Origin: an uncultured Opitutales bacterium
GTDB lineage: Bacteria; Verrucomicrobiota; Verrucomicrobiia; Opitutales; CAYWEO01
Direction of reading: 5' to 3'
DNA: 64,000 nt
Assembly (NCBI GenBank): GCA_964457855.1
Contig: CAYWEO010000004.1
Span: forward strand, 4,127-68,126
Position 1 is the stretch's first letter. The number at the start of each line of letters is the position of its first letter. A model generated the notes under the pieces. The model saw nothing but the letters and a program-made list of their open reading frames with translations, was not told the origin of the DNA and searched no databases. This document shows positions 20,720 through 25,531 of this stretch, piece by piece. The translations under genes and the position numbers were made by a program.

Positions 20720-23700
20720 CTACCTCCAGTTTGAAAAGATGAGTTTCAGCATTTCTTCGAGGCGTTTCCGAATCGTGGAGGCCAAGTTTTCGATAAGATT
20801 CAATTGATCCATCACATATTTTAACTCGGTCTGATGGGTCTGTAACGATGTACCAATGTTGGTAGAAACGTTTTCACAGGTCTTAACTAAATCTGTTTTA
20901 GCGCAAGGATATGCCGGAAGTGTGCCAATATTCTTGACCGGATCGCCACCTTCTAGTTCTCTGACGCACATCTTAAATTGTTCCTTATTCGTCGTGTACC
21001 CCACTTTCACGATATACGATTGCTTGCCAACTGTCACAGTCACCTTTTTCACGCCAAAAGCTTTACCAGGCTCTAGCTGATCCAGTGTTGCCTTATTATC
21101 AACCGCTTTAAATGCTTCTTCTAATTTATCTGGTGGCAATGCCATTGTGTTCTCATCCATCAGTATAAAGCGATCATTTGAGGGATTAGTTTCATAGTCC
21201 TTAGGCAATACTGGAATGTACTTCCCATCATTGTCATCAACAGGATATTTTGCACTTTGCCCCATGTATTCAATGAAATTGCGCGTAACATTCGGCATAT
21301 TAACCAGTTCAATCTTCCCATCTGCAAGATTTTTCATCGCTGCTACCGCCGCTGTTGAAGCCTTTAAGTAGAGTTGATCGGCTTTTAATTTATCCGTGTG
21401 CTCTGCCAATCTATCCCTTTGTGAGCCAGCCGCAAGAGCCAAGGTATCATCGACAGCATTGATCAAAGATTTGCTATTGAAAAGGAATTCGATATAAAAA
21501 CCTTCCGCAATCCATGCTCCATCCTTCGATTTCGTGCGTGGCACCCCTTGTAAGAATTTGACGTAGTTCTTGCTTGATGGGTCATTGCTCGCCAAAGCAA
21601 GATACTTTTGGATAAATTTAGCCTTATCCACTGCGCCAAGTTTAGAGAAACTGATTTCTCTTAATTGATCAAGAGATGTGATCTTATCAAAGTCTCTGGC
21701 AAGCGGCATGACGCCTTCAAGATCTTTTAACCGCTTTTGAGCCCCATCGGCTTCTTTGAGATACGCCCCCATTTTAGCAGCAATTTCTTTGGCTTCAGAT
21801 GGCCGAATTGTTTTAGAGGAAGTGCTACTCTTCTCTAAAATATCAACAATCTTTTTAAGATGTTCGATGTTGCCCTGTGAGACCTCACGTTGGATTTTTG
21901 TAACGTCTGATGCAGTTAGATAAGGTGCAGGAAGCGATAACAATGGTAACTTTAAGTCATCAAATCGTTTTTGCATCCCTTCGCGCACTCCAACGAGGCG
22001 GTTGACTGTTTCTCTCAACAGCCAGTTTCCCATTTCGTCCGGATCTTTCGGATTGAGCTGTCTCATTTTTGGTCTCCCTCTTGTCTGGAATACCATGTAG
22101 TCGTCATCCTCAAAATCGCTGCCGGTGGTCCCTTTTAAGCGTACAATTCCATCCAGTACACTTTTCGTGCCCTCATCAATTCCTGGCATGTCCTTCAAAT
22201 TTGCGATCTCTCTCTTGAGATTTGTAACCTCCTCATCTGATACATATCTTCTACACGCAAGATCGTTGGCTTGTTGGTATACTTTATGAACTTTTTCCGT
22301 GTTTTGCCGAGCCACTTCCTTTGCTTTTTCTTGGTTCTCGATTGCTTGCTTTTGATCTTCGCTTGCTTTTTCTTTGTTTGCTTTCCCACAATCGGTGAGT
22401 TTTTCCATTAACTTGACATCGCCGCCAAACGCTTTCAGGATGTCTGCATCATCTTTTTCATTAGCTTTCTGCTCAATGATTTTAATTTCGCCGAGAGCTT
22501 TTTTAAAATTAGTCAGCTCATTATCGGTCACAATCCTATCGAATTTTGAGAGAATCTCTTTGGATGGATTAGTCAAATATGGATTATTCTTTAGATCATC
22601 GAGTATTTTCTTGGCCTCACTATTTTCTGTATCAAATTTGGTCTTAAGATTACCCAACACCGTTTTTAATTTATCTAAAGCTTCTCCACTAAACGAATTT
22701 TCTGGTTTAGAAGCTGCTAGCTGAATACACCTACCTGCATCATTCTCTATTCTGCGGATGCCATCGAAATTTTCCTTGTTGTCAAGTTCAGAAAAAGTAG
22801 TGTCAATGATCTGTTTGTTTTTCTTAGATGTATCGCTGAGATCTTTCGTTTTTAGCTCACTAATGATTTCACTGACAGTTTTGTAAGCATCGGTAATGCG
22901 TGTGCATGAATCTAAAACCTCTTTTGTTGCCGATACTGAACCAAAACCATCGTGCAGCTTCATCCATTCTTTCATCGCTTGGGCAGTTTCCTCTATCGAT
23001 CGTGCGTCGATACCATATATTGGAAGGCTGGCTAAGATGCCTGCTTCCTTTCTGTCCCGATCATTCGCAGTTTGTGCTGCATTGAGCCCTCCGTTGGGAT
23101 AGTATACATTCCATTTCTTCGCCACGCTTTCATTCATTCCCACCCCTAATTTGATGGGATTTAAAATGCCATCCATAAAAGCATCAAAGAGTTCTCTAGT
23201 GGGTTCCGGAATTTTAGCAAGGGTTTCTCCATGGTCATATCTGAATTTCCCTATATGATCGAACCCTCCCCAACCTCCATTCTCGTAATCAAGCATCTTA
23301 ACGAGCTCATTATAACGATCGTCGTTACCAAAAGCACTGTTCATGCCATTTTTTACTTGTCCAAAGAAACCAGCGATGTCTTCTCTATGGACATTTGGCA
23401 CTTGCCAGTGCACTGCTCTTCCATCGACCCAAGACAATCTAAACCCTGTGGCAGCCATTGCACTTCCAAGGAGTTTGTATCTCATGACTTTGACTTGGGG
23501 AGTTTCTGCAGTGATTGTCTGTATTACCGCTATCAGTTTCTTCATCAACGGAATAGCAGTGTCTACTTTCAGACCTTTCAGCTCGAGGCTAGCCTTTAAC
23601 GCTGAATAAGTCGCCGGGTCTAATATTTTCTGAAGACTCGCAAACGATTCATTCACGTTTCCAGGTGTCAGATTTTTGATGATATCATCGATTTGTTTTG

Positions 23701-25531: not shown

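Follow-up and report, generated by a model that had tools for sequence, protein, structure and literature searches.

A species-restricted 1603-residue orphan in a type III secretion gene string of an uncultured Opitutales bacterium: a putative exported giant needle-tip protein

The stretch of DNA analyzed here, referred to as the window, comprises 64,000 nucleotides (nt) of contig CAYWEO010000004.1 from an uncultured Opitutales bacterium (Verrucomicrobiota, class Opitutae; assembly GCA_964457855.1). [quoted passage not shown] Along the minus strand, the order is a 169-aa ORF, SctY, SctV, a 138-aa ORF, BIG, an LcrH/SycD-type chaperone, proteins of 436, 289 and 137 aa, SctC and a 164-aa protein. 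BIG is encoded on the same strand as its neighbors and is separated from them by gaps of only 35 and 46 nt. In our reading, BIG is an orphan confined to its own species and putatively a giant needle-tip protein that the T3SS exports.

The BIG gene is a single unbroken frame of 4812 nt that starts with ATG and consists of 1603 codons plus a stop, according to both the ORF listing and its translation. A first-pass annotation, made from the letters of the window without database searches, had placed an uninterrupted 4.8-kb ORF at exactly these coordinates, to which the strand is added here. With DNA of ~42% GC, an open frame of 1603 codons would lie far outside what chance could produce. The frame is also open in 10 independent Logan assemblies derived from other sequencing runs, in two strain variants, and an NCBI record of a 68,369-bp contig annotates an identical protein of 1603 aa. 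No clear Shine-Dalgarno sequence was seen upstream of the gene.

Several properties of the protein are those expected of a secreted T3SS substrate. BIG has no transmembrane (TM) segment and no Sec signal, as its Kyte-Doolittle mean over 19 residues peaks at 1.1. Its first 60 residues (25352..25531, minus strand) form a polar S/P/G/N-rich N-terminus without a hydrophobic core. The residues S, T, P, N, Q and G account for 48% of the first 50 positions, and the first 25 include one acidic and one basic residue. This composition is compatible with a type III secretion signal, and the segment is treated here as a putative one. The overall composition is dominated by K, L, A, E and D. A central region at aa 690-870 (22922..23464, minus strand) is rich in W, G, H and Y and poor in K and E; for residues 701-800, G and P make up 18%, W, Y, F and H 17%, and K and E just 11%. 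The first-pass annotation had described the absence of Sec and TM segments, the polar N-terminus and the less charged center in much the same terms, and each description agrees with these values. No internal repeats were found. PxLxxP motifs, which can indicate chaperone binding, occur twice (0.47 expected), with neither copy near the N-terminus, and were judged uninformative. The lack of Sec and TM segments, the polar N-terminus and the rapid evolution of BIG (see below) are substrate-like features, and we consider BIG likely to be a T3SS substrate.

Database searches gave almost nothing to which BIG could be compared. A word-indexed search of 5.8 billion clusters returned one fragment, 97% identical and from the same species. 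The same single fragment was returned by an exhaustive HMMER search of 1.84 billion representatives, which covered aa 404-1603. Pfam and NCBIfam searches with the whole protein (E ≤ 0.01) and with eight segments (E ≤ 10) yielded noise only, as did PDB sequence searches, for which the last 311 aa and the last 70 aa served as queries alongside the complete sequence. The V-antigen family of LcrV and PcrV (PF04792) found no Pfam, NCBIfam or PDB sequence match in BIG, and neither the family model nor the solved structures of the IpaD/SipD/BipD family matched. Judged by sequence models, BIG belongs to none of the LcrV, IpaD/SipD, EspA/SseB, Bsp22 or SctF families, and by these searches it is an orphan. 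The statement in the first-pass annotation that no family could be recognized is therefore borne out by the Pfam, NCBIfam, PDB and HMMER results, and the likeness to LcrV, IpaD or SipD for which it had suggested searching is not found by sequence. Its further suggestion of an enzymatic central domain gains nothing from the segment-wise Pfam searches, the structural model or Foldseek.

The strongest clue to the function of BIG comes from its C-terminal end, ..EEMLKLIFSNWR, in which a resemblance to needle subunits had been suspected from the outset. A local database of 8489 six-frame ORFs of at least 50 aa was assembled from the window and ~90 fetched loci. When this database was searched by phmmer with the last 70 aa of BIG and with filters off, the best non-self matches were SctF needle proteins of relatives in the Planctomycetes-Verrucomicrobia-Chlamydiae (PVC) group, the best with E 0.003. 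The top three matches are 113-128-aa proteins encoded near SctV in Kiritimatiellota, in an unclassified rumen metagenome-assembled genome (MAG) and in Lentisphaeria, and the next two are 81-87-aa proteins of Achromobacter and Belnapia. All five are SctF proteins, since they match PF09392 with E of 3e-17 to 2.5e-6 and their profile matches YscF (3e-11), PrgI and MxiH in PDB. The alignment of the BIG and SctF tails extends over 42 aa with 14 identities and no gaps, and is anchored at both C-termini (SLQTHQTELKYVMDQLNLIENLASTIRKRLEEMLKLIFSNWR versus DVQANLQQLQYDLQQWNLALTTMTNIQKNMADALKSISSNFR). SctF ends with ..KSISSNFR and BIG with ..KLIFSNWR. This SctF-like segment of BIG lies at 20723..20848 of the minus strand and is detected by phmmer, by a tail-specific hidden Markov model (HMM) and by hhalign.

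The SctF-tail HMM was built from the last 60 aa of the five SctF proteins. Among the ORFs not used for training, it ranked first a Bsp22-like protein of Achromobacter (locus L004; E 9e-5), which also matches PF09392 weakly (E 0.001), second the inner rod protein SctI (identified by PF17001/HrpB2; E 0.0012) and third BIG (E 0.014). A myxobacterial needle-like protein is fourth (E 0.087), followed by noise. In isolation, the last 60 aa of BIG score 19.6 bits with this model, and none of 5000 shuffled versions exceeds 13.3. Only the same two axial proteins, Bsp22-like and SctI, outscore BIG among natural C-termini (n = 3825). Likewise, a score of 19.6 bits is attained by only three of 120,625 windows of 60 aa, cut from all ORFs with 150 aa or more, and these three belong to the Bsp22-like tip protein and SctI. 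The best non-axial windows reach ~10-11 bits, and the best window elsewhere in BIG 4.6. When the SctF alignment was compared by hhalign with the last 264 aa of BIG, P and E were both 0.001, with 35% identity over 37 columns, end to end, and a probability of 21%. A full-length SctF HMM also maps the needle N-helix onto BIG residues 1359-1384, a sub-threshold result that is not significant alone. The C-terminal helix of BIG thus resembles the C-terminal helix of SctF at modest significance, and the resemblance suspected in the first-pass annotation passed a test against independent SctF sequences.

The SctF proteins of PVC relatives used here are themselves atypical. Three of them (L014:13655-14032, L015:11194-11535 and L003:14059-14445) are 113-128 aa long and carry ~45 extra N-terminal residues relative to canonical needle subunits. 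They score 28-29.3 bits with PF09392, just below its cut-off of 29.4, and may for this reason escape annotation pipelines.

AlphaFold2 was run without homologs on the single sequences of aa 93-1292 and of aa 1293-1603, and from its output we kept only the secondary structure and set the tertiary models aside; Foldseek comparison of both models with PDB gave no match at E ≤ 0.001 and no tip protein. In this low-confidence model, aa 93-1292 are nearly all helical apart from a poorly structured part at about aa 690-850, and the central region (aa 690-870) has few helices, with a predicted local distance difference test (pLDDT) score of 28-45. The helical body that had been predicted by eye is consistent with this picture. 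The last part of the protein is predicted to form a module of two long helices and an insert. Helix A covers the 51 residues of aa 1353-1403 (21323..21475, minus strand; pLDDT 56-67) and has a heptad score of 0.42, which is over the 99th percentile of shuffles. It is followed by a mixed alpha/beta insert at aa 1404-1547 (20891..21322, minus strand; pLDDT 25-45) with two helices and three strands, and then by a 55-residue C-terminal helix within aa 1548-1603 (20723..20890, minus strand; modeled as 1548-1602). The heptad score of this terminal helix is 0.64, against 0.46 for the 99.9th percentile of shuffles, and the helix is among the two strongest such segments of BIG. Bsp22 is reported to have a helix at residues 26-74, a mixed alpha/beta region and a helix at 144-204, and EspA is alike (PMC12607632). 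At the level of a low-confidence prediction, the helix-insert-helix layout of aa 1353-1603 equals the one reported for these two tip proteins. The module makes up only the last 16% of BIG.

BIG could also be a secreted needle-length ruler or substrate-specificity switch of the SctP/FliK class, an elongated helical protein with a globular domain at its C-terminal end, whose great length would specify an unusually long needle. Its signal-like N-terminus, the length and predicted mostly helical nature of its body and the alpha/beta domain predicted toward its C-terminal end would suit this role. Rulers are secreted by T3SSs and are poorly conserved. However, BIG matches no YscP, FliK or T3S4 model and has no internal repeats. 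Genes for rulers normally lie between sctO and sctQ and not in a translocator operon, and rulers are not known to end in a needle-like helix. We therefore regard a ruler function as very improbable.

The genes around BIG were assigned by family models where these matched. SctY (28140..28526; NF052415) and SctV (26035..28143; TIGR01399, E 1.5e-274) form a unit at 26035..28526 that stands alone in related genomes; these and the other genes of this paragraph are on the minus strand. The 138-aa polar ORF (25567..25983), which matches no family, is the first gene of the putative operon that includes BIG. Downstream of BIG are a class II TPR chaperone of the LcrH/SycD type (20107..20673; TIGR02552 E 4.9e-26, under the curated cut-off, plus TPR Pfam matches), a 436-aa protein resembling a major translocator (18741..20051) and a 289-aa protein resembling a minor translocator (17888..18757; 268 aa in other gene callers). 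The 436-aa protein has at least two hydrophobic segments, a PxLxxP motif (PTLAKP) at aa 100, a weak match to the hydrophobic hairpin of the colicin A pore domain (E 0.0097) and the C-terminus ..DIARNF. The 289-aa protein has one hydrophobic segment. The label “translocator” is derived from this topology, the PxLxxP motif and the weak colicin A match. The hydrophobic topology and gene order expected of two translocators, as first proposed, are present, but neither protein matches a translocator family model. The string continues with a 137-aa weakly CesT-like chaperone (17412..17825; PF05932 E 0.0016, under cut-off), the SctC secretin (15360..17381; TIGR02516 E 2.4e-90) and a 164-aa class I chaperone of the CesT family (14802..15296; PF05932 E 4e-17, with weak YscB and SicP matches).

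Both ends of the T3SS gene string adjoin housekeeping genes, with pssA, ftsA, ftsQ and a murC-murB fusion on one side and pgsA and pgpA on the other, which implies that the T3SS is split across the genome. The fusion is one 782-aa ORF (32832-35180, minus strand) that joins MurC (aa 28-467) to MurB (aa 485-775). Within the 64-kb window, BIG is the only ORF whose score points to an axial or tip protein. Upstream of SctY, in the position of sctX in Ysc operons, is the 169-aa ORF (28893-29402, minus strand), which has no family match. This ORF and SctY are separated by an inverted repeat, at 28773-28819, whose 20-bp stem is perfect. It looks like a bidirectional terminator, which would separate SctY-SctV from the upstream genes.

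The first-pass annotation had placed BIG in the slot that lcrV occupies in collinear Ysc-type operons, an argument that must be divided into two parts. The closest SctV proteins, with 65-75% identity, are found in Puniceicoccales/Opitutales MAGs, followed by those of Chthoniobacterales, Lentisphaeria and Kiritimatiellota, and then by those of Achromobacter, Bilophila and Chlamydiae at 50-57%. In 6/6 nearest relatives inspected (L091, L092, L094, L096, L099 and L100), SctY-SctV is an isolated pair that is followed by unrelated genes, and no translocator genes are present near SctV in any of the six. Furthermore, a promoter-like site, TTGACA-17-TAAATT (25997..26025, minus strand), separates sctV from the 138-aa ORF; it is the best minus-strand match, and the number of such sites in this region is not above chance. 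The link to SctV is therefore weaker than first proposed and is not conserved in these relatives. In a Lentisphaeria locus, SctD follows SctV, and the proteins after SctV in L001, L002 and L003 have no similarity to BIG. A tblastn search of 80 loci with BIG and its neighbors found nothing, an LcrH protein search with an E cut-off of 1e-10, which was too strict, returned only the identical protein, and metagenome scans with LcrH and SctC gave nothing useful toward an orthologous translocator operon.

The second part of the argument, which concerns the class II chaperone and the translocators, stands. Among proteobacterial loci, those whose SctV comes closest are L004 of Achromobacter, L006, L007, L008 of Bilophila and L010. 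In these, the genes for the class II chaperone and the translocators are immediately preceded by one that encodes a 178-215-aa Bsp22/SseB-like protein with weak SseB or needle-model matches. Bsp22 is an experimentally established tip-filament protein (PMC12607632). The slot argument is thus weak relative to SctV and stronger relative to the translocators.

Other observations on these relatives concern their T3SSs more broadly. The T3SS genes of the nearest relatives are scattered in their genomes, as in Chlamydiae. In L099, whose SctV is 72% identical, an ATP/ADP translocase gene (7975-9501; PF03219 TLC) adjoins SctY-SctV, which hints that this Opitutae clade may include intracellular energy parasites. 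In the Puniceicoccales MAG Pcl387_bin136 (L001:13200-19672), ~6 kb downstream of SctV is nearly without ORFs of more than 110 aa on both strands and may be degraded.

A large and poorly conserved protein that is co-expressed with the translocon could also be a translocated effector, as are the products of sipA and ipaA. BIG would then be exported by means of its N-terminal signal with the help of one of the two CesT-like chaperones. Its helical and central domains would exert their activity in the host cell, and the likeness of its amphipathic C-terminal helix to needle subunits would be due to chance or convergence. T3SS effectors as large as 1600-2000 aa are known, for example in the AvrE/DspE family. 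BIG is a large, fast-evolving orphan with a polar N-terminus and no TM segment, and its non-helical central region could be a catalytic domain. The two CesT-family chaperone genes of the string, three and five genes downstream of BIG, have no obvious cargo in the window. Moreover, a Chthoniobacterales MAG contig, CAXTRS010000297.1 (L002:2167-5630), carries, directly after SctV, genes for a 162-aa CesT-family chaperone and for a protein of 980 aa whose matches are to glycosyltransferases of the TcdA/TcdB and DXD types (PF12919 and PF04488). This protein is a candidate T3SS-delivered glycosylating toxin in Verrucomicrobiota, and the arrangement indicates that effectors can hold the place after SctV in this phylum.

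The effector interpretation nevertheless meets several difficulties. Searches of Pfam, NCBIfam, PDB sequences and Foldseek revealed no enzymatic, effector or host-mimic domain in BIG. There is no adjacent class I chaperone; the neighboring 138-aa ORF is not CesT-like. In known operons, effectors are encoded downstream of the translocators, whereas BIG is upstream of the class II chaperone. Finally, an effector has no reason to carry an end-anchored SctF-like helix that far outscores every non-axial window. We consider an effector role less likely than a tip role, to which it is the main rival.

The 138-aa ORF has no family match in Pfam or NCBIfam, including the LcrG model. Small proteins encoded upstream of PVC SctF genes (L015:10897-11148, L003:13519-13764 and L014:13297-13635) were used for comparison, and the best local match is the one directly upstream of SctF in L015, with which the 138-aa ORF has in common a ..AG[VL]PP[ED]..LMD.. 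stretch. This similarity falls short of significance (phmmer E 0.098; HMM E 0.99), and assignment as a YscE-like co-chaperone was rejected and retained as a lead only. Based on its position, which is like that of LcrG, CesAB or YscE, the 138-aa protein is a candidate for a dedicated chaperone of BIG.

Comparison of strains offers an independent view of how the protein is constrained. The two variants of BIG have DNA identities of 99.9% and ~98.5%, with codon differences between them that are 39 non-synonymous and 18 synonymous. A region of 163 codons, aa 1130-1292 (21656..22144, minus strand), accounts for 42 of these 57 differences. Within it, a hypervariable loop at aa 1136-1156 (22064-22126) carries in-frame indels (+3 and -6 nt) and ~15 substitutions. 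A frameshift pair was considered for this loop and rejected, because the in-frame indels and substitutions explain it. Residues 12-298 and the C-terminal 311 residues (aa 1293-1603) are identical between variants. BIG is the fastest-diverging gene of the cluster, with 19 differences per kb, followed by the 436-aa translocator with 11 per kb. The LcrH-type chaperone (100% identical), the 289-aa and 137-aa proteins and SctC are nearly invariant. This pattern suits exposed, host-facing proteins with a constrained assembly module.

The same data bear on whether BIG is secreted at all. The protein could remain in the cytoplasm or at the envelope as a scaffold or regulator, or the gene could be lineage-specific, in decay and without T3SS function, and its orphan status, the absence of a clear Shine-Dalgarno sequence and the high ratio of non-synonymous to synonymous differences (39:18) could be read in this way. 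However, the 4.8-kb frame is intact in two diverged variants and in more than 10 assemblies, the differences are clustered, and the C-terminal 311 residues are invariant. The gene is also tightly embedded among T3SS genes of the same strand, and its product has a needle-like C-terminus. A non-secreted or decaying protein is accordingly hard to credit.

Four features lead us to favor a needle-distal axial role for BIG: the likeness of its terminal helix to needle subunits in an end-anchored alignment, the predicted helix-insert-helix layout, the invariance of the C-terminal module between variants and the place of the gene before a class II chaperone. We estimate a probability of roughly one in two that BIG is a giant needle-tip component of the SctA class, that is, a tip cap or filament subunit of Bsp22/EspA design with an N-terminal extension of ~1350 aa. 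Among the three roles put forward in the first-pass annotation, the evidence thus favors a giant tip protein or a tip fusion over an effector that has replaced the tip gene.

If BIG is a tip component, its last ~250 aa would form a hairpin like that of a needle subunit, in which an alpha/beta insert of ~145 aa at the turn joins a ~51-aa helix to a terminal helix of ~55 aa; the final 42 aa of the latter would mimic the SctF tail. The protein would be exported through the needle, and the C-terminal module would then dock on the distal needle end like a further subunit, so that BIG could act as a cap or a short tip filament, as do Bsp22 or EspA. The preceding ~1350 aa, predicted to be mostly helical, would be displayed around the tip. 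In the PrgI needle model, the N-terminus of the subunit points outward in the polymer. Together with the ~45 additional N-terminal residues of PVC SctF proteins, this suggests that the N-terminal side is a topologically permissible site for added mass. The extension may serve as a spacer, as a surface for host contact or adhesion, or as an added effector-like domain. The two adjacent translocators, held by the LcrH-type chaperone, would find their platform in such a tip, and the 138-aa protein would likely function as an anti-polymerization chaperone.

In its broadest form, the proposal is that BIG represents a new class of injectisome tip, in which a needle-like hairpin with a 150-kDa helical N-terminal extension caps the needle or polymerizes and arranges long arms around the tip. 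This broader proposal is tentative, and we would not be surprised if it proved wrong. The arms could constitute a device for host contact or adhesion, or an effector-like domain delivered at the contact point, and the design may have evolved in host-associated Verrucomicrobiota (Opitutae). Giant flagellins that decorate flagellar filaments offer a parallel for such a long-armed structure.

A number of results weigh against a tip role. BIG has no ortholog outside its own species by which the conservation of such a role could be judged. The tip family models LcrV, IpaD, EspA and SseB do not match BIG. The Pfam needle model, PF09392, did not report the last 64 or 90 aa even at E ≤ 10, and a phmmer search of PDB with the last 70 aa did not retrieve needle proteins. 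With an HMM of five Bsp22-like C-termini, BIG was unreported at E ≤ 100, and hhalign gave a probability of 0.1%. The resemblance to SctF spans just ~42 residues of amphipathic helix, and the modest E-values of 0.001-0.014 stem from an HMM of five sequences and from small databases that were assembled locally. As the SctF of this organism lies outside the window, SctF proteins of other PVC classes took its place. Both models had a low mean pLDDT, which was 45.3 over aa 93-1292 and 45.5 over aa 1293-1603, and the top Foldseek matches, none of them significant, were to V/F-ATPase stalk subunits and generic helical solenoids. The adjacency of BIG to SctV is lineage-specific. Moreover, a tip subunit of 180 kDa would outsize the largest known V-antigen by a factor of ~2.6 and Bsp22 by a factor of ~8, and to our knowledge nothing similar has been described.

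Tip proteins are the host-sensing, antigenic end of injectisomes, and those known to us, which make up three or four families, are all 180-610 residues long. A tip of 1603 residues with a needle-like tail would therefore greatly widen the known size range, and would imply that an axial docking helix can bear very large cargo on an outward-facing N-terminus. It would also offer a concrete way into the question of how Verrucomicrobiota (Puniceicoccales/Opitutales), whose T3SSs have hardly been studied, contact their eukaryotic hosts by means of these systems; we found no paper in the literature on the T3SS of Puniceicoccales. Confirmation would be a striking extension of injectisome architecture, for which the present basis is a modest but specific in silico signal. 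Should BIG prove to be an effector instead, it would be one more orphan effector and of moderate interest. In either case, the SctF-tail HMM, which picked out the Bsp22-like protein, SctI and BIG to the exclusion of ~120,000 control windows, offers a simple screen for unannotated axial and tip proteins in divergent T3SS loci.

Among known systems, large effectors of the SipA, IpaA and AvrE families are similar to BIG in being large, helical, poorly conserved, co-expressed with the translocon and free of a Sec signal. They differ in that they are encoded downstream of the translocators and have host-binding or channel domains and class I chaperones. We know of no large T3SS effector that ends in a needle-like helix.

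The V-antigens LcrV, PcrV, AcrV and VcrV occupy the operon slot before lcrH-yopB-yopD, as BIG does before its chaperone and translocator genes. SctY, which we take to be a Ysc-type component, adds to this likeness. A small helical ORF precedes BIG as lcrG precedes these genes, although the 138-aa ORF matches no LcrG model. V-antigens also vary in size through N-terminal and central insertions, as in VcrV, while their C-terminal domain is the most conserved (PMC7064248). The largest V-antigen that we found in the literature is VcrV, at 619 aa with its tag and 68 kDa (PMC7064248); BIG is 2.6 times as large as this protein (~607 aa) and has no LcrV model match. The V-antigen C-termini ..DILSAI and ..ILGAI (derived from primers in PMC7064248) lack the xxNFR-type needle motif of BIG. 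With regard to the V-antigen dumbbell fold, in which two long helices build a central antiparallel coiled coil, two long heptad-periodic helices are predicted in BIG from a model with a mean pLDDT of 45, for which Foldseek gave no tip protein.

SctF (PF09392, and the 113-128-aa PVC type) resembles BIG end to end over the last ~42 aa, with 33-35% identity in an alignment that takes in Y, N-L, K and S-N-[FW]-R, and in both cases the extension is N-terminal, with ~45 extra residues in PVC SctF. However, BIG is 12-20 times larger, has an insert of ~145 aa where SctF has a short turn, lacks a PF09392 match, and is encoded in a translocator operon rather than beside YscE/G-type chaperones.

The closest parallels in design are found with Bsp22 and EspA. 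The BIG gene, like theirs, lies directly upstream of a class II chaperone and translocators, and BIG is predicted (in a low-confidence model) to have a long helix, a mixed region and a long C-terminal helix. A variable region outside the terminal helices is also shared. BIG differs in its ~8-fold larger size, which is due to the ~1350-aa N-terminal extension that both lack, in an inter-helix insert about twice as long, and in having no profile-level similarity to Bsp22-like C-termini. BIG and Bsp22 have in common a needle-like C-terminal helix, and the Bsp22-like protein of L004 matches the same SctF-tail HMM. By design, BIG most resembles the Bsp22/EspA tip-filament proteins, and it shares with SctF what would be the docking helix.

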